Shown piece after piece: positions 1,321-38,395 of a stretch of 64,000 nucleotides of DNA (positions are counted from its first letter, which is position 1; every line of letters starts with the position of its first letter). The DNA lies in NCBI RefSeq assembly GCF_003790525.1, contig NZ_CP033634.1; one strand, 5' to 3'. This stretch comes from Escherichia coli. GTDB lineage: Bacteria > Pseudomonadota > Gammaproteobacteria > Enterobacterales > Enterobacteriaceae. The notes under the pieces are model-generated. The model was not told the DNA's origin, did no database searches, and saw only the letters and a list, made by a program, of their open reading frames with translations. Both the position numbers and the translations under genes were made by a program.

Positions 1321-4300
1321 TGTTGAGTTTTAGCGTTGTTAAATCGGCAGGCAGTGCCGGAAACTATTACACCGACAAGGATAATTACTATGTGCTGGGT
1401 AGCATGGGAGAACGCTGGGCCGGTCAGGGGGCTGAACAGCTTGGGCTGCAGGGCAGCGTCGATAAGGATGTTTTTACCCGTCTTCTGGAGGGCAGGCTGC
1501 CGGACGGGGCGGATTTAAGCCGCATGCAGGATGGCAGTAATAAGCATCGTCCCGGCTACGACCTGACCTTCTCCGCCCCCAAAAGTGTCTCCATGATGGC
1601 CATGCTCGGGGGGATAAACGTCTTATTGATGCACATAACCAGGCTGTGGATTTTGCTGTCCGTCAGGTGGAGGCGCTGGCTTCCACACGGGTGATGACGG
1701 ACGGACAGTCAGAAACGGTGCTGACCGGTAATCTGGTGATGGCACTGTTTAACCATGACACCAGTCGCGATCAGGACCCACAGTTACACACGCATGTGGT
1801 GGTGGCTAATGTCACGCAGCATAACGGCGAGTGGAAGACACTGAGCAGTGACAAAGTGGGGAAAACCGGATTTTCCGAGAACGTGCTCGCGAACCGGATT
1901 GCGTTCGGGAAAATATATCAGAGTGAGTTACGTCAGCGCGTTGAGGCGCTGGGTTATGAAACCGAAGTGGTCGGTAAGCACGGTATGTGGGAGATGCCGG
2001 GCGTACCGGTGGAGGCCTTTTCCGGACGCTCACAGGCTATCCGGGAGGCCGTCGGGGAAGATGCCTCGCTGAAATCCCGGGATGTGGCGGCACTGGATAC
2101 GCGAAAATCCAAACAGCACGTCGATCCGGAAATCAGAATGGCTGAATGGATGCAGACGCTGAAGGAAACCGGGTTCGACATCCGGGCATATCGTGACGCG
2201 GCGGATCAGCGTGCGGAGACCCGCACGCAGGCGCCCGGGGCTGTTTCACAGGAGGGGCCGGATGTGCAGCAGGCGGTGACACAGGCCATTGCCGGATTAA
2301 GTGAACGAAAAGTGCAGTTCACGTATACGGACGTGCTGGCCAGGACGGTCGGCATACTGCCGCCGGAAAATGGTGTGATTGAACGGGCACGCGCCGGTAT
2401 CGATGAGGCCATCAGCCGTGAGCAGCTTGTCCCCCTCGATCGTGAGAAGGGGCTGTTCACGTCCGGGATTCATGTGCTCGATGAGCTGTCAGTCCGGGCA
2501 CTCAGTCGTGACATCATGAAACAGAACCGGGTGACCGTACATCCGGAGAAAAGTGTCCCCCGGACGGCCGGTTACAGCGATGCCGTCAGTGTTCTGGCAC
2601 AGGATCGCCCGTCGCTGGCCATTGTGTCCGGGCAGGGCGGTGCAGCCGGGCAGCGTGAGCGGGTGGCTGAACTGGTCATGATGGCCCGGGAGCAGGGGCG
2701 GGAGGTGCAGATTATCGCTGCTGACCGTCGCTCGCAGATGAACCTGAAGCAGGATGAACGGCTGTCCGGTGAGCTGATAACCGGACGTCGTCAGCTGCAG
2801 GAGGGCATGGTCTTCACGCCGGGCAGTACCGTTATCGTTGACCAGGGCGAAAAACTCTCCCTGAAAGAGACGTTAACCCTGCTGGACGGTGCCGCACGTC
2901 ATAACGTACAGGTCCTGATAACCGACAGCGGGCAGCGAACCGGTACAGGCAGTGCGCTGATGGCCATGAAGGATGCCGGGGTGAACACGTATCGCTGGCA
3001 GGGCGGAGAACAGCGACCGGCCACCATCATCAGTGAACCGGACCGGAATGTCCGCTATGACCGGCTGGCCGGAGATTTTGCGGCCAGCGTGAAAGCCGGA
3101 GAAGAGAGCGTGGCACAGGTCAGCGGGGTACGGGAACAGGCCATACTGACACAGGCCATTCGCAGTGAGCTGAAAACACAGGGCGTGCTCGGACACCCGG
3201 AGGTGACCATGACCGCCCTGTCACCGGTCTGGCTGGACAGCCGGAGCCGTTATCTGCGGGATATGTACCGACCGGGGATGGTGATGGAGCAGTGGAACCC
3301 GGAGACACGCAGTCATGACCGCTATGTTATCGACCGGGTGACGGCGCAGAGTCACAGCCTGACCCTGCGGGATGCGCAGGGCGAAACGCAGGTGGTGCGT
3401 ATTTCCTCCCTGGACAGCAGCTGGTCGCTGTTCCGGCCGGAAAAAATGCCGGTGGCAGACGGCGAGCGACTGAGGGTGACAGGGAAAATTCCCGGACTCC
3501 GCGTCTCCGGCGGTGACCGCCTGCAGGTGGCATCCGTCAGTGAAGATGCGATGACGGTTGTTGTGCCGGGGCGGGCTGAACCGGCCACCCTGCCTGTGGC
3601 TGATTCACCGTTCACGGCACTGAAGCTGGAGAACGGCTGGGTGGAAACGCCCGGGCATTCCGTCAGCGACAGTGCGAAGGTTTTTGCCTCCGTCACACAG
3701 ATGGCAATGGACAACGCCACCCTGAACGGTCTGGCCCGCAGTGGTCGTGATGTCCGGCTGTATTCTTCACTGGATGAAACCCGTACTGCGGAAAAACTTG
3801 CCCGCCATCCCTCCTTTACGGTGGTTTCTGAGCAGATAAAGGCGCGTGCCGGTGAGACATTGCTGGAAACCGCTATCAGTCTGCAGAAAGCCGGGCTTCA
3901 CACGCCGGCACAGCAGGCTATTCATCTGGCCCTTCCTGTGCTGGAAAGTAAAAACCTGGCCTTCAGCATGGTGGACCTGCTGACAGAGGCGAAGTCGTTT
4001 GCTGCAGAAGGAACCAGTTTTACTGAACTGGGAGGGGAAATCAATGCGCAGATAAAACGCGGTGATTTACTGTATGTGGATGTGGCAAAAGGCTATGGCA
4101 CAGGCCTGCTGGTTTCCCGTGCGTCGTATGAGGCAGAAAAGAGCATTCTTCGCCATATTCTCGAAGGTAAGGAGGCGGTCACGCCGCTGATGGAGAGAGT
4201 ACCTGGCGAACTCATGGAGAAACTGACATCAGGACAGCGTGCCGCCACCCGCATGATACTGGAAACGTCCGACCGTTTCACGGTGGTGCAGGGCTATGCC

Positions 4301-31434: not shown

Positions 31435-32523
31435 CTATTCAGTTAGCATGAGCTTTGCTTTAAGAAACGTAAGTTTGATGTCATCAGTTTTGGTGAACTT
31501 GAACTTACCGTCAGTAGAAGCGTTAAACCTTTCAAAATAGTATTCAAGTAGCGGATCGTACCTGCCACCGTGAACCCAAGTGTAGAACTTACCAAGTTCA
31601 TAACGTAACTCTTTATCAAGTTCAGATCTTATTCTCAGCTCACTATCGTTTGCTAGTTCAACGATGTTCATTTCTTGAAGGTTCGTCTTAATCTCTTCAA
31701 TCAGAGGTAGGAGGGATTCTTTATACTTATCAGCCAATGGTACAAGGTCAGCGTCAGTTACTTCCGCTTCAAAAATCATAATCAGGTCGTCAATCTCCCC
31801 GTTATAGTAATCGTTATCTAATCGTTTTTCTGACTCAGTACGAAGAACATAGAGTTGTTCTAAAGGATCTAATTTAGTCTCAATTTTTTCTTTTGAAAGT
31901 TTGTGTTGATACTCAACAAACAGCGTTTCAATCCTATCAGCAATAACATCAAGATACTCATATCGAATTCTGAGAAATTCCAACAGCTCATTGATATTGA
32001 GGTTTAACGTTAGGTCTTCTTTACCCACATCTCGACTGTACAAATGAACACTCAAATCGCCAGTGTTGAAATGACTTTGAAATGGCCAACTTGCGAAACG
32101 CTTTGAGTTTTCTTGATTCAGATTTACGGGGTGAGCACCGAAACACGCCCTGATAGTTTTAAAATAATTATTATCATCTTCATTAGCGAAGAGGCGATCT
32201 TTGAAACATTTCTTTTCACCATAAAACGGATCTTTCTTATCAGTTATAAACACTCGATGGAGTTGTTTTATTGACTCGAAAATAAGGTCTATTGAAGAGA
32301 TCAGAGAGTAGACCTGCATACATCTACTATCTATGTTCTTGTCAAACTCAGGCGCATTTTCTAAGTGGCGAACAGAGACAGAGATCCAATCCATAGCAGA
32401 GCAAACGAGGTTAAAAAGATTCTTACCACCTTTATCTTTGTATATTTGATACACAAAGCTAGAGTTTGAGTTAACTAAGTCTCGAAAATCACTGATTTTA
32501 TCGTCACTAACAACGTTTCTCAT
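31435..32523 (-). CDS. Hypothetical 362-aa protein, candidate abortive-infection effector (Rx5H HEPN-like motif)
   Basis: Long clean ORF in a low-GC segment; RACFGAH fits the Rx4-6H HEPN pattern; no other family recognised. Confidence 0.6.
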   Translation of the reverse strand: MRNVVSDDKISDFRDLVNSNSSFVYQIYKDKGGKNLFNLVCSAMDWISVSVRHLENAPEFDKNIDSRCMQVYSLISSIDLIFESIKQLHRVFITDKKDPFYGEKKCFKDRLFANEDDNNYFKTIRACFGAHPVNLNQENSKRFASWPFQSHFNTGDLSVHLYSRDVGKEDLTLNLNINELLEFLRIRYEYLDVIADRIETLFVEYQHKLSKEKIETKLDPLEQLYVLRTESEKRLDNDYYNGEIDDLIMIFEAEVTDADLVPLADKYKESLLPLIEEIKTNLQEMNIVELANDSELRIRSELDKELRYELGKFYTWVHGGRYDPLLEYYFERFNASTDGKFKFTKTDDIKLTFLKAKLMLTE

Positions 32524-32958
32524 TCTCTAATCGCCTTCTAACCAATTGAAAATATTATGAAGAATGGCAAAAATGATAGTGATAGTTCTTCAATTCTTCA
32601 ACTTCTTTTTTGATTTGAAGTGAAGTGATACGCTGGGTTTTGTCACTTAGTTAGATTTGAACGATGAGGATCTCTAGCCAGTTGTATTGCTAGGCATTAT
32701 CCGAAGACAAATAGAAGAACTGAACCTCGAAGTAACTTTTATCCTAGGACGTGCTGAAGCTGGTCTCCGCAAACTTGTGATCTAGGCCAACACGCCTTTG
32801 CCCCCAAAACATTTAAAGCTATCCCTCATCACACCTTGCTAACTCGTTACTTGCCCGAATTTTTGTAATGAGCCAATATGCTATTAGTTGGTTATCCACT
32901 TAATTGTTTTATCAATTTATTTGATGACAATTTACACCATGTGTTCAAGGTATTGATT

Positions 32959-34059
32959 ATGGAATTACAGACAAGGCTAGTTTTTATCGATACAAGCGCT
33001 TTTGAAAAGAAAAACTATCAATTTGGGCAACACGCTCTTGGTCGTCTTCAAGAACTAATTGAGGATGAGAAAATCCACTTGCTCATTACTGATGTGACAA
33101 GGAAAGAGATCGACTCCCATCTCAAACACAAATCTGAAGAAGCAGCTTCTATGATAAAGAAGATGCAAAGAGATGCGATGTTCCTAAGAAACACCCCCGA
33201 CCTTGATTGTCATGGCATCTTCACCAAGATTAAAGGTGATGATATTTATGCTGTTATCAGTGAAAAATTTGATGATTTCGTCGAAAACGGCTACGTCGAA
33301 ACAATTGATGTAAGCACTGTTAACCCTCAAGTTGTATTTGATGCTTACTTCAACAACCTTCCTCCTTTTGGCAAAGAATCAAAAAAGCACGAGTTTCCTG
33401 ATGCATTTGCGCTAGAAGCTATTAAACAGGTGAGCTTGGCTAGAGGATATTCAGCCTATATCGTTAGTGACGACGGCGATATGAAATCATTCTGTGAGAA
33501 AGAAGATAACTTCATTCATCTTGAAAATGTCGATGACCTAATTGACTTGATTGTTCGAAGCGACAAAGCGTACGAAGAACCAGCCAAATTTGCTGATGAA
33601 ATATTCGAACAACTCCTAGAACAAATCAAAGCGGATGCCCTGCAAGCTCTCGAAGATGGCGAGTTCAACTATGAAAACGCAGATCCTTTCGATGAGACTA
33701 TCAATTCTATAGAAATCAACTCGGTGAATGTTGGGAAGAAAAACTTACAGAATGTCGATGCCGAGTGGGCTGAATACGAAGTAGAATTTGAGGTGGTTGT
33801 TACGGCAGATTATCGATTCTCAGATTATGACCGTTCACCTTGGGACCCTGAAGACAAGCAATATGTATTCGTCTTGAGTAATGAGTCAACAGTAAAACAC
33901 AAAGAAACATACACTGCCCACATAACACTTGCCTATACCGATGGATTAAAAGCTAACGCATACATTGAAGAGTTTTACTTCCAAGATACATATTTTGAGC
34001 TGACTGATAATGACTCCGAAGTCATTAGCTTCAAAGAACTAGATATCAACGGTGAATGA
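32959..34059 (+). CDS. PIN-like domain protein (resembles DUF4935-type PIN-like nucleases); alternative upstream start at 32878
   Basis: N-terminal LVFIDTSAF...LLITDVTRKEI...EFPDAFALEAI...YIVSDDGDM pattern of acidic residues on a PIN-like scaffold; stop lies 2 nt before the next gene. Confidence 0.6.
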   Translation: MELQTRLVFIDTSAFEKKNYQFGQHALGRLQELIEDEKIHLLITDVTRKEIDSHLKHKSEEAASMIKKMQRDAMFLRNTPDLDCHGIFTKIKGDDIYAVISEKFDDFVENGYVETIDVSTVNPQVVFDAYFNNLPPFGKESKKHEFPDAFALEAIKQVSLARGYSAYIVSDDGDMKSFCEKEDNFIHLENVDDLIDLIVRSDKAYEEPAKFADEIFEQLLEQIKADALQALEDGEFNYENADPFDETINSIEINSVNVGKKNLQNVDAEWAEYEVEFEVVVTADYRFSDYDRSPWDPEDKQYVFVLSNESTVKHKETYTAHITLAYTDGLKANAYIEEFYFQDTYFELTDNDSEVISFKELDINGE

Positions 34060-34060
34060 C

Positions 34061-34529
34061 ATGAAGCTATATGTAATAGGTAATGGCTTTGATGTTCATC
34101 ATGGCCTTGACACTAGGTATACATCTTTTGGGCTTTATCTCAAAAATAACTACTGGGAAACTTATGAACTATTGCTCGACTATTACGGGTTTGCTGACTT
34201 AGACCCAGATTTTCCAACAACAATGTCAGACCCTTTATGGTCTGAATTTGAAACGAGTATGTCACTGCTTGATAAAGATTCAGTTTTGGAAGCAAACATG
34301 GATGCAATGCCAAACTATTCTTCAGATGACTTTCGAGACAGAGACCGATACACGCTTGAAATTGAGATGGAGCGAATACTTGGCCTTCTAACCACTGAAC
34401 TGTATAAAGCATTCAAAGAGTTCATTTTGGCTGTACAGTTTCCTCAGTTTGATCACAGCCGATCAGTAAACATTGATAGAGACGCTGTTTACCTCACATT
34501 CAACTACACAGATACGCTTTCTCAATACT
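34061..34529 (+). pseudogene. AbiH-like abortive infection gene, truncated at codon 156 by IS2
   Basis: N-terminus MKLYVIGNGFDVHHGLDTRYTSF matches the recalled AbiH N-terminal signature; the frame runs into the IS2 left end at 34530. Confidence 0.6.
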
Positions 34530-34620
34530 TAGACTGGCTCCCTGAATCTCCAGACAACCAGTATCACTTAAATAAGTGATAGTCTTAATACTAGTTTTTA
34601 GACTAGTCATTGGAGAACAG

Positions 34621-34986
34621 ATGATTGATGTCTTAGGGCCGGAGAAACGCAGACGGCGTACCACACAGGAAAAGATCGCAATTGTTCAGCAGAGCTTTGA
34701 ACCGGGGATGACGGTCTCCCTCGTTGCCCGGCAACATGGTGTAGCAGCCAGCCAGTTATTTCTCTGGCGTAAGCAATACCAGGAAGGAAGTCTTACTGCT
34801 GTCGCCGCCGGAGAACAGGTTGTTCCTGCCTCTGAACTTGCTGCCGCCATGAAGCAGATTAAAGAACTCCAGCGCCTGCTCGGCAAGAAAACGATGGAAA
34901 ATGAACTCCTCAAAGAAGCCGTTGAATATGGACGGGCAAAAAAGTGGATAGCGCACGCGCCCTTATTGCCCGGGGATGGGGAGTAA
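34621..34986 (+). CDS. insC: IS2 OrfA (InsC)
   Basis: [56 protein letters not shown]... Confidence 0.92.
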
Positions 34987-35849
34987 GCTTAGTCAGCCGT
35001 TGTCTCCGGGTGTCGCGTGCGCAGTTGCACGTCATTCTCAGACGAACCGATGACTGGATGGATGGCCGCCGCAGTCGTCACACTGATGATACGGATGTGC
35101 TTCTCCGTATACACCATGTTATCGGAGAGCTGCCCACGTATGGTTATCGTCGGGTATGGGCGCTGCTTCGCAGACAGGCAGAACTTGATGGTATGCCTGC
35201 GATCAATGCCAAACGTGTTTACCGGATCATGCGCCAGAATGCGCTGTTGCTTGAGCGAAAACCTGCTGTACCGCCATCGAAACGGGCACATACAGGCAGA
35301 GTGGCCGTGAAAGAAAGCAATCAGCGATGGTGCTCTGACGGGTTCGAGTTCTGCTGTGATAACGGAGAGAGACTGCGTGTCACGTTCGCGCTGGACTGCT
35401 GTGATCGTGAGGCACTGCACTGGGCGGTCACTACCGGCGGCTTCAACAGTGAAACAGTACAGGACGTCATGCCAGGAGCGGTGGAACGCCGCTTCGGCAA
35501 CGATCTTCCGTCGTCTCCAGTGGAGTGGCTGACGGATAATGGTTCATGCTACCGGGCTAATGAAACACGCCAGTTCGCCCGGATGTTGGGACTTGAACCG
35601 AAGAACACGGCGGTGCGGAGTCCGGAGAGTAACGGAATAGCAGAGAGCTTCGTGAAAACGATAAAGCGTGACTACATCAGTATCATGCCCAAACCAGACG
35701 GGTTAACGGCAGCAAAGAACCTTGCAGAGGCGTTCGAGCATTATAACGAATGGCATCCGCATAGTGCGCTGGGTTATCGCTCGCCACGGGAATATCTGCG
35801 GCAGCGGGCTTGTAATGGGTTAAGTGATAACAGATGTCTGGAAATATAG
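34944..35849 (+). CDS. insD: IS2 OrfB (InsD) transposase catalytic part (expressed as OrfAB frameshift fusion)
   Basis: DDE integrase-like ORF overlapping orfA in the -1 frame. Confidence 0.92.
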
Positions 35850-35957
35850 GGGCAAATCCAGTGATATCCAATTCATTCAGTCTGTAAACACAATAGTGGA
35901 CATTCTCACATTGTCAAACGTGTATAGTTAGAGAGTGGAAGTAAAAGTGTATGGGTG

Positions 35958-36056
35958 GTTATTGCTGAGTACGATGACCGGTTCGTTGCGAAGGTCCGGG
36001 CGGAAAACTTTTTCACATGAGGCGTAGAAACTGTTGATATCAGCCAGTGCAAACAT
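35958..36056 (-). pseudogene. impB: impB 5' portion (first 33 codons)
   Basis: MFALADINSFYASCEKVFRPDLRNEPVIVLSNN matches the recalled UmuC N-terminus; the ATG overlaps the impA stop. Confidence 0.75.
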
Positions 36057-36493
36057 CAGCGTAACTCCCGCGTCCTGTGTATCACGTGAGTGACAACACC
36101 AAAAATACAGATGTTTTCCGGATACAGTGTGCGGAACTCCGGGCTGTCTGAAACCGGCTCCAGTGCCGGGCGTGGGCGCAACAGCAGTCGTTTGACGGTG
36201 AACTCACCATCGATCTCAGCGATAACGATGTCCCCGTGTTGTGGTTTTTCGGCCCTGTCCACTACCAGCAGATCACCATTCTGCACGCCAGCCTGGTTCA
36301 TCGATTCACCGCTGGCGCGCAGAAAGAAGGTGGCTGCAGGTCTGCTGATGCAATAGCTGTTCAGATCCAGTTCCTGCTCAGCATAATCAGTGGCAGGCGA
36401 AGGAAAACCGGCCAGGCAACGATCGGCAAACAACGGTCGCACGTAACTGTCATTGCCTGAAGGGTCAGCCGGACGGTGATAAACGGTACTCAT
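36056..36493 (-). CDS. impA: ImpA (UmuD-like, LexA-type S24 peptidase fold)
   Basis: 145-aa product aligns with recalled UmuD (FPSPATDYAEQELDLN...GESMNQAGVQNGDLLVVD...GDIVIAEIDGEFTVKRL). Confidence 0.88.
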   Translation of the reverse strand: MSTVYHRPADPSGNDSYVRPLFADRCLAGFPSPATDYAEQELDLNSYCISRPAATFFLRASGESMNQAGVQNGDLLVVDRAEKPQHGDIVIAEIDGEFTVKRLLLRPRPALEPVSDSPEFRTLYPENICIFGVVTHVIHRTRELR

Positions 36494-36738
36494 GCTGCAG
36501 GCAGCCAGCTGTCGTCCTGCCAGATTTCTTCCAGCAGAGACAGGATACGTTCTTTATCCTTGTCGTTGCGGGCTCCTGTGACAGATACAGACGGGGCGCT
36601 GCCCTGGTCTATACGCAGCCAGATTTCCGGGTAGTGTGGTTTCAGACGTCGTTCGATTTCATTCTGTAGCGCCTGAAGTGTGCCTGATTTGAGGTTTTTT
36701 GTGCTCTGGCGGTCGAAAAGAATTTCAATGCGGATCAT
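36490..36738 (-). CDS. impC: ImpC, small first gene of the impCAB operon
   Basis: 82-aa ORF from ATG 36738 with GGAG upstream; stop overlaps the impA start; sits between the LexA box and impA. Confidence 0.7.
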   Translation of the reverse strand: MIRIEILFDRQSTKNLKSGTLQALQNEIERRLKPHYPEIWLRIDQGSAPSVSVTGARNDKDKERILSLLEEIWQDDSWLPAA

Positions 36739-36761
36739 GTTCTCATCTCCCTTTTCTTTTG

Positions 36762-36777
36762 CTGTATGTATATACAG
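36762..36777 (-). promoter_or_regulatory. LexA (SOS) box CTGTATGTATATACAG upstream of impC
   Basis: Perfect CTGT-N8-ACAG palindrome 24 bp upstream of the impC start. Confidence 0.7.
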
Positions 36778-37378
36778 TATTCTAATAACTGAATCCACAC
36801 ACAGTCAAATGTCATTATTGTGACTAAAAAACGCTCAATTCTCTGAGGGTGTGGCTGTATGCCTGCTGTGGACTGCTGTGTCCAGCTTATCCACAGCATT
36901 TTGCGCACGGTTCTGTGAATAAAATACCTGGTTACCCAGGCCGTGCCGGCACGTTAACCGGGCTGCATCCAATGCAAGTGTGTCGCTGTCGCCGGCATCC
37001 TCACCAGGTCACTCAGCAGTCAGGGAGAAAAATGGCGGATGAAGTATGACGGAGACGGTCGGGCAAGTGCCCGTTTCTTTTCCGACAAAGGATGTCGCCG
37101 TGCTCCTCTTTTTACTGCGCCGGCTGACGCGGCGCGGCATAAACGCTGCCTGTGGTCAGTGTCCCGCGTCCGGCGGGCACGGGACGGGCGCTTTTACCGC
37201 TCCCGGCTGGCACCGGTGACAGTGTACGCCAGCCCGTCGCCCTTTTCTGATGAACGCCCTTCAAGCCGCTTTCGCGAATGAAAGGGACATCTTATTCGGT
37301 CTTTACGCTGGAGAGTTACTTTGGAAGACTGCGTCAACACGATGATAAGCGTACAAAGCCATTGTTAAGGGATCCTCT

Positions 37379-38395
37379 ATGACTGTTGTTACTGTCGGTA
37401 TTGATTTAGCTAAAAATGTGTTCGCTGTGCATGGCGTTAATGCTGCAGGAAAAGCTGTTTTAGTTAAGCCTCTTGTGCGTCGGGCTAAATTGCTTGAATT
37501 GATTGCAACACTTCCAGCATGTCTGATTGGAATTGAAGCATGTACAGGTGCACATTACTGGGCAAGAGAGTTCCAGAAAATGGGGCATACAGTTCGAATT
37601 ATGGCGCCGCAACTGGTTTCTCCATACCGTATGGGTGGCCGTCATGGGAAAAATGATGCTGCAGATGCCGCTGCCATTTGTGAAGCTGTTACCCGTCCTA
37701 ATATGCGGTTTGTTCCCATAAAATCAGTTGAGCAGCAAGGGCAGTTATTTGTACACAGAGCTCATCAGGGATATGTCAGTGAGAGAACAGCATTGATTAA
37801 TCGCATCCGGGGATTGCTCAGTGAGTTAGGTATTGTTCTCCCGCAGGCGTTTAAAGCGTTTTTATCCGGGGTGGCTCAGGTCCTTGAGGATTTGCCCGGT
37901 TACTGTAATCAGGTTATTGGTGATCTTCTTAATGAGCTTTATCACATAGAAGAAAAGATTAAAAACAGTGAAAAACTCATTCAGCAACTTGCCAGAGATA
38001 ACTCAGCAGCACAACTACTAATGCAATTCAGGGGGATAGGCCCGATGACTGCAACAGCAATCGTTGCCAGCATAGGTAATGGTCATGATTTCAAGAACGG
38101 ACGTCAGTTTAGTGCCTGGCTGGGGCTAACACCAAGACAACAAAGTTCCGGGGGGAAAGCACGGTTAGGGAGAATAACTAAAGCCGGCGACAGCTATCTC
38201 AGAACACTTCTTGTTTTGGGGGCGAGATCTGTATTGTTGGGAGCAGCTAAAAATGATGATCCGGTCAGTCGATGGGCCCTGCAGTTAAAAGAAAGGCGAG
38301 GATATGGACGAGCGCTTGTTGCGATAGCAGCAAAAAATGCACGTATGTGCTGGGCAATGTTGCACCTGAGAGATGAATTCAGATTTCCTGCCTAG
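37379..38395 (+). CDS. IS110-family transposase/recombinase
   Basis: 338 aa; N-terminal RuvC-like segment (VGIDLAKNVFAVHG...IGIEACTGAHYW), NDAADAAAICEA motif and C-terminal GIGPMTATAIVASIGNGHDF segment; element ends not determined. Confidence 0.85.
   Translation: MTVVTVGIDLAKNVFAVHGVNAAGKAVLVKPLVRRAKLLELIATLPACLIGIEACTGAHYWAREFQKMGHTVRIMAPQLVSPYRMGGRHGKNDAADAAAICEAVTRPNMRFVPIKSVEQQGQLFVHRAHQGYVSERTALINRIRGLLSELGIVLPQAFKAFLSGVAQVLEDLPGYCNQVIGDLLNELYHIEEKIKNSEKLIQQLARDNSAAQLLMQFRGIGPMTATAIVASIGNGHDFKNGRQFSAWLGLTPRQQSSGGKARLGRITKAGDSYLRTLLVLGARSVLLGAAKNDDPVSRWALQLKERRGYGRALVAIAAKNARMCWAMLHLRDEFRFPA

Follow-up and report, generated by a model that had tools for sequence, protein, structure and literature searches.

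A PIN_12–AbiH gene pair on a mobile cassette, truncated by IS2 in Escherichia coli

Do an AbiH protein and a PIN nuclease encoded by abutting genes act together, or are they simply carried side by side? The question is raised by a locus in a 64,000-nucleotide stretch of Escherichia coli DNA (contig NZ_CP033634.1, assembly GCF_003790525.1; hereafter, the window), in which a gene of the PIN_12 family is followed directly by the first part of an AbiH gene that has been cut by the insertion sequence (IS) IS2. AbiH is one of the commoner single-gene defences and its mechanism is still listed as unknown; PIN_12 proteins have only just been tied to defence. A PIN_12–AbiH operon that recurs in nature would be a convenient setting in which to ask if PIN nucleases cooperate with immune SIR2 proteins or if the two are merely stacked. 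An earlier account of this DNA, made from its letters alone (the sequence-only reading), had proposed a co-translated module with a fixed PIN-like partner.

The answer that emerges is that the pairing is genuine but limited to a single lineage, and that the partner is not fixed. We assign a probability of about 0.55 to the explanation that one operon stacks two self-sufficient abortive-infection effectors, as opposed to encoding an obligate two-component machine; this model is preferred because single-gene defence has been reported for both families and because either partner is dispensable in evolution. The pair is apparently an undescribed, lineage-restricted two-gene version of AbiH or, equally, of Cosus-like PIN_12 defence, both of its parts belonging to known defence families.

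The pair is a mobile cassette

We collected 77 genome loci with PIN_12 relatives and scanned them with profile hidden Markov models (HMMs) of both families. An AbiH gene lies directly downstream in eight of the nine loci with at least 80% identity to the query PIN_12 protein, and the same pairing recurs in Aliivibrio fischeri, Photobacterium damselae, Acinetobacter seifertii, a lineage of metagenome-assembled genomes (MAGs) and Vibrio harveyi, down to 59% AbiH identity: adjacency, co-orientation and tight spacing are all held from 100% to about 59% identity. The sequence-only reading had pointed to the homologues of the PIN-like gene as the place to look for an AbiH-like gene immediately downstream and, for close homologues, it is there in many genomes. 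Moreover, the divergence of PIN_12 is correlated with that of AbiH across 55 locus pairs (r = 0.96), as co-inheritance of the two genes would predict.

The recurring unit is a block of shared DNA of 2.34 kb, which runs from ~162 bp upstream of the PIN_12 ATG to ~117 bp beyond the AbiH stop codon. The same ends are found in the enterobacterial (E. coli/Shigella) umuC island, in the tra region of a Shewanella baltica plasmid, and in Photobacterium, Vibrio and Pseudoalteromonas; they fall at 3617 and 5957 in an intact copy of the island (locus L003), and the left end lies at ~32797 in the window. Positions 32797–34529 of the window are the surviving part of this horizontally mobile cassette of two co-oriented, abutting genes (Table 1). 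No recombinase is encoded within the 2.34 kb, and inspection of the 117-bp 3' region by eye together with repeat searches (a dedicated attC model was not run) gave neither an attC-like site nor terminal inverted repeats at the cassette ends, only short direct repeats of the TTGCCCCAAA type. In Photobacterium, a direct repeat of 24 nt, TTGCCCCAAA(A)GCAWTTYAAAGCAA, lies on either side of the cassette (L005 5840–5863 and 8170–8193), its two copies sharing 83% identity.

The sequence-only reading had also suggested that intact versions may exist elsewhere, and they do, with an AbiH gene of 319 codons. The window itself matches the E. coli plasmid pGZM7d (NZ_CP129283.1) at 100% identity; the RefSeq annotation of this plasmid lists a 'PIN domain-containing protein', an 'AbiH family protein' and an 'IS3-like element IS2 family transposase'. 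The same DNA is carried as far as 34529 by at least 22 other plasmids, including one from S. dysenteriae (NZ_CP026778), which there part from the window by continuing; in most of them, the AbiH gene is annotated as complete ('bacteriophage abortive infection AbiH family protein'). The intact pair, within its island, is also present on the chromosome of E. coli NCTC86, where the cassette occupies 1458661–1461061 of NZ_CP019778.1. Overall, 28 of the 5,426 complete genomes of E. coli have the pair (24 chromosomal and nine plasmid places), and intact copies of the cassette are carried by 27 complete E. coli genomes, NCTC86 among them.

The surroundings of the cassette and of its AbiH relatives vary. 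In both Aliivibrio fischeri and Photobacterium damselae, the next genes downstream are those of Hachiman (HamA and a DEAD helicase; L183/L184 3994–6944), and in A. fischeri a second AbiH gene and a PLD-like gene lie upstream. A DUF4365 gene and a UvrD-like helicase gene adjoin the solo AbiH gene of V. lentus, and a UvrD-like helicase gene only is found in V. harveyi (L082 727–3654; L083 1–4724). Tn7-like cargo also occurs among the neighbours, as does a Lamassu LmuB_C-domain gene accompanied by one for a Cap4-nuclease/ATPase.

It is conceivable that the pair has no part in defence and is of use to its mobile elements for a different purpose (RNA turnover, for example, or maintenance of the element), or that the two genes are hitch-hiking neighbours brought together by chance. 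The cassette is indeed always on mobile DNA, and a defence activity of this particular clade is putative. However, the recurrence of an identical cassette in unrelated genomes excludes chance adjacency, the genes around it are known defence genes (Hachiman, the Lamassu LmuB_C-domain gene with Cap4-nuclease/ATPase, and Tn7-like cargo), and anti-phage activity has been reported in both families; we, therefore, regard a role outside defence as improbable.

Table 1. Coordinates of the cassette, IS2 and the umuC island in the window
Feature	Position	Strand	Remarks
umuC (impB-type), C-terminal part, split by island	29848..31026	-	Translation opens NNDGCVIARSPEAKALG; in sister records, umuC without its N-terminus
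Island, left part	31027..32796	.	Includes the 362-aa ORF
362-aa ORF, function not assigned	31435..32523	-	Divergent from the PIN_12 gene
Leader and probable promoter region	32797..32958	+	5' end of the 2.34-kb unit common to unrelated genomes
PIN_12 gene (formerly DUF4935)	32959..34059	+	ATG 32959, TGA 34057-34059; 366 aa, intact
AbiH fragment	34061..34529	+	First 156 codons from ATG 34061; SIR2-fold family
IS2, 1,331 bp	34530..35860	+	Source record: IS3-like element IS2 family transposase; terminal sequences visible
Island, right end remnant	35861..35957	.	97 bp, from IS2 to the umuC N-terminal fragment; in intact copies, immediately upstream of where the integrase gene starts
umuC, N-terminal 33 codons	35958..36056	-	Translation MFALADINSFYASCEKVFRPDLRNEPVIVLSNN, then island sequence
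umuD and dinI-like genes	36056-36798		Upstream of umuC on the operon strand (downstream in + coordinates)

aa, amino acids; ORF, open reading frame.

The two genes abut

The stop codon of the PIN_12 gene is separated from the AbiH ATG by a single nucleotide, one fewer than the two counted previously. The genes had also been described as overlapping: this would require the GTG at 34052 as the start of the AbiH gene, a candidate that we rejected as it is not conserved, the ATG being the conserved start. In most pairs, the junction consists of the stop codon, 1–2 nt and an ATG; an 11-nt spacer containing GAGG is found in V. harveyi, and the two genes overlap by 11 nt, as called, in the MAG lineage (L088–L091). 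The geometry is identical in Aliivibrio, Photobacterium damselae and Acinetobacter, where the genes occupy 1899–2999 and 3001–3960. The proposal of a co-translated pair is in keeping with this spacing across many genomes, which fits co-transcription and translational coupling. A promoter in the leader is putative only, because a consensus promoter scan did no better there than on shuffled sequences; around the intact pair, consensus scans for promoters and for terminators likewise failed to outperform shuffled sequences, and are uninformative on the operon.

The PIN_12 protein

The PIN-like ORF was correctly delineated by the sequence-only reading: its product matches the Pfam PIN_12 model (PF16289) over the full length (positions 1–172 of 172; expect value 4.7e-36). 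A 393-aa version of this ORF, starting at 32878, is a gene-caller extension and was rejected; its start is not conserved, and the homologues all open at MELQTRL. The protein has an N-terminal PIN nuclease domain and a C-terminal β-rich domain, for which relatives were not detectable. The structure model has a PIN/VapC-like fold, and with it go the conserved metal-binding acidic residues of PIN nucleases. Neither PADLOC, NCBIfam nor PHROGs contains a model that matches the protein, and sequence searches of solved structures returned nothing for either it or the AbiH protein.

Given that PIN domains are the classic VapC toxins and that the two genes are tightly coupled, one might picture a toxin–antitoxin-like pair, in which either the PIN nuclease or the NADase is a toxin that its partner neutralizes. 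VapC-type toxins do share the PIN fold and conserved acidic residues with the PIN_12 protein, but the latter is 366 aa long, with a helical insert and an extra C-terminal β domain, and has no antitoxin gene. The hallmarks of a VapBC-like type II system, namely a small adjacent antitoxin whose loss is not tolerated, are absent: both proteins are large enzymes, with no small antitoxin or small partner ORF, the loss of either partner is tolerated in nature, and both families consist mostly of solo genes. We consider such a pair very improbable.

The AbiH protein, complete and truncated

The AbiH resemblance noted at the N-terminus of the downstream ORF holds up in profile searches: the fragment in the window matches positions 1–155 of the 260 in the Pfam AbiH model (PF14253; expect value 2.1e-29), and also the PADLOC AbiH model (1.4e-12, as against 1.1e-29 for an intact homologue). 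The gene is cut after codon 156 by IS2, as had been proposed and as the break in homology at 34529 confirms; the AbiH frame continues into 16 IS2-derived codons to give a chimeric ORF with its stop at 34577–34579.

The AbiH protein models as a SIR2-like Rossmann fold, a conclusion also reached in a 2026 Abi review and in the SIRim preprint. The best structural matches are the immune SIR2 proteins of SIR2-HerA/Nezha, Thoeris, SIR2-APAZ/short Argonaute and PD-T7-2. In an alignment of 44 AbiH sequences, the invariant columns include G7-N8-G9-F10-D11, N148, H168, G181-H182 and G262-H263-S264. By analogy with sirtuins, the GNGFD loop, N148 and H168 are likely to be the NAD-binding and catalytic residues, corresponding to the GAG loop, the catalytic Asn and the catalytic His, respectively. 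The intact copies elsewhere are complete proteins of ~320 aa with the conserved second half; the window copy is not. The fragment retains GNGFD and N148; H168 and all beyond it are gone and, therefore, no active enzyme is possible. Thus, the suspicion that the module is inactive here stands for AbiH and fails for PIN_12, the gene for which is intact; AbiH is dead, but the locus may still be partly functional.

The partner is not fixed

Beyond the close relatives, the association dissolves. PIN_12 relatives at 38–55% identity (Psychrobacter, Shewanella, Marinomonas, Aeromonas, Pantoea and Pseudomonas) are of the same length, solo and without a conserved neighbour. This agrees with Matelska et al. 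(2017), who placed DUF4935 in a VapC-like group and found it usually monocistronic. One close PIN_12 relative, in Arsukibacterium (L009; 85% identity), is also solo. On the other side, AbiH relatives at 45–63% identity stand without PIN_12 in V. lentus, Acinetobacter bereziniae, Alteromonas, a Salmonella P2-like prophage and a viral contig, and none of 80 AbiH loci from viral contigs (23–63% identity) has a PIN_12 gene. As the AbiH HMM detects distant members in the viral scan, the absence of AbiH beside distant PIN_12 genes is real at that sensitivity.

Neighbour-joining trees tell the same story at finer grain: the paired PIN_12 proteins form one clade with the solo Arsukibacterium protein nested inside it, and solo AbiH proteins at 57–63% identity are interleaved with the paired ones. 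The solo AbiH gene of V. lentus and the paired one of V. harveyi have a UvrD-like neighbour in common, no PIN gene or remnant being found in the V. lentus AbiH locus, and two Acinetobacter loci, one solo and one paired, have a DUF932 neighbourhood in common. Additionally, each gene has been found broken beside an intact partner: AbiH in the window and in E. coli records H45, H51, H53 and H54 (by frameshift or truncation), and PIN_12 in H38, H48 and H50 (by insertion of an IS3-family element or IS5). In an obligate two-gene system, neither gene should persist alone among close relatives, and this is not what is observed; the notion of a fixed PIN-like partner is, therefore, abandoned.

The annotation of AbiH in two pieces in L177 and L178 (E. 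coli E18 and PRO_A-1443-6M-A) and in H53 stems from indels of 1–2 nt, located at two distinct sites; either AbiH has been inactivated repeatedly in nature or the assemblies contain homopolymer errors.

These same data bear on the main alternative, a cooperative two-component system, in which the proteins form a sensor-plus-executor complex or the product of AbiH controls the nuclease, the solo relatives being older single-gene versions. Such a system would account for the conservation of the 1–11-nt spacing and of the cassette ends across many contexts, for the monophyly of the paired PIN_12 clade and for the co-divergence of the two proteins; moreover, immune SIR2 proteins commonly have partners (SIR2-HerA, Thoeris and short Argonautes), and it is these that rank first among the structural matches and that the SIRim preprint mentions. 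It is harder to reconcile with solo AbiH genes nested in the paired clade, two of which share a neighbourhood with a paired relative, with the close solo PIN_12 gene, or with the disruption of either gene beside an intact partner. Paired PIN_12 proteins, moreover, have no additional domain relative to solo ones. No fusion protein is known from our searches either: among the matches listed for an artificial-fusion query, none was a natural PIN_12–AbiH fusion, the best coverage being at most 56% and no match containing both Pfam domains (a weak negative). We judge cooperation to be plausible, and less probable than stacking. The more far-reaching proposal, of a new SIR2-plus-nuclease two-component system (acting through physical interaction or through an NAD-derived product) with the solo relatives as a simpler kind, and of a cassette that is moved by an undescribed site-specific mechanism, strikes us as rather unlikely.

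A model with two self-sufficient effectors

Under the preferred model of stacked effectors, the PIN_12 and AbiH genes would share a transcript that begins in the leader ahead of PIN_12, and each protein would be a self-sufficient abortive-infection effector. Upon infection, AbiH would consume NAD+, like other immune SIR2 proteins, via the GNGFD loop, N148 and H168, and PIN_12 would cut RNA through its metal-binding acidic residues, as reported for Cosus.

Several points weigh against this model. The 1-nt spacer is kept from 100% to about 60% identity, a pattern seen more typically within a single system than between independent neighbours. The paired PIN_12 proteins make up a single clade that is almost never without AbiH, which fits co-adaptation. 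The AbiH and PIN_12 proteins that have been assayed elsewhere are distant relatives, or of unestablished similarity to these clades, and the putative NADase and RNase activities are predicted solely from folds and conserved residues. Furthermore, sequencing or assembly errors could account for the AbiH frameshifts, which come from three assemblies (NZ_AP027685 and two draft-level CM records), an explanation that does not extend to the IS insertions and truncations.

Relation to known systems

AbiH is reported to act as a single gene in Lactococcus, S. thermophilus and Vibrio; the insert cloned in the Vibrio case measured only 1,379 bp. The protein encoded here resembles the AbiH of Lactococcus lactis (PF14253; a single-gene system in both DefenseFinder and PADLOC) in its profile match, its length of ~320 aa and its predicted SIR2-like Rossmann fold, and shares with the family a location on mobile elements and in defence islands. 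It differs in being encoded by the second cistron of a two-gene cassette, behind PIN_12, and in that the window copy ends after residue 156 and lacks the predicted catalytic His.

The closest comparison for the first gene is Cosus (Brc24), a single PIN_12 protein carried on integron cassettes that blocks phage T7 and needs its predicted PIN active-site residues (bioRxiv 10.1101/2024.07.02.601719). Common to the two, when compared by description, are the PIN_12 domain, the small mobile cassette, and homologues in Vibrio and marine gammaproteobacteria, but Cosus acts alone and has an attC site, whereas the present gene is coupled to AbiH and no attC-like site was seen. Systems in which an immune-type SIR2 protein is encoded beside a second protein (SIR2-HerA/Nezha, Thoeris ThsA-ThsB, SIR2-APAZ/short Argonaute and PD-T7-2) offer a further parallel; here, however, the partner is a PIN_12 nuclease, not a HerA ATPase, a TIR protein or an Argonaute, and the PIN_12–AbiH partnership is dispensable in evolution.

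We found no description of the pair as a conserved operon in the literature searched, in PADLOC or in NCBIfam, and to that extent the architecture is unreported, as had been supposed. Current annotation tools would flag the AbiH half only, and the PIN_12 half, including a surviving PIN_12 gene beside a dead AbiH gene, would, therefore, be overlooked.

IS2, the deletion and the umuC island

In the window, the cassette is a decayed remnant made by IS2, and its practical weight is modest. BLAST comparison with the intact island of L003 gave two blocks, L003 1–5349 matching 29164–34529 and L003 11906–13058 matching 35861–37012 of the window; 6,556 bp have, therefore, been replaced by the 1,331-bp IS2. 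The sequence of events comprised the insertion of IS2 into abiH and a 6.6-kb deletion, which took AbiH residues 157–319 and the remaining island. The lost DNA comprises AbiH codons 157–319, three to five uncharacterized genes (for products of 146 aa, 663 aa and, in NCTC86, 616 aa, the last being represented by three shorter ORFs in the S. dysenteriae record) and the gene for a 509-aa tyrosine recombinase, the deletion boundary lying 3 nt from the start codon of the latter.

The element as a whole is a ~10.2-kb tyrosine-recombinase island, inserted in umuC between the LSNN and DGC codons (a conserved SNN|DGC motif), and several of its large genes have no family match. It is intact in L003 and in L176 (9338–19487), and its remnant spans 31027–35957 in the window, with the hexamer AATAAC at both junctions (31026–31021 and 35963–35958, minus strand). 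Plasmid-borne umuC genes of the impCAB type and the umuC gene on the E. coli NCTC86 chromosome are both occupied by this island. The literature was searched for reports of defence islands that target umuC, and nothing relevant came up.

The 362-aa ORF, which was considered as a third member of the module, has no match in Pfam, PADLOC, NCBIfam or PHROG. It was rejected because none of the non-enterobacterial copies of the cassette has it, its occurrence being limited to the umuC island of enterobacteria; it could be extra island cargo. The 616-aa gene beside the integrase gene in the intact island (L176 16011–17858, minus strand) has a very weak match to Phage_integrase (expect value 0.18), and its product could be a second, degenerate recombinase-like protein. 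Finally, a second IS lies nearby: the transposase gene of the IS110-family ISShdy1 occupies 37379–38395 (+), just past the dinI-like and umuD genes.

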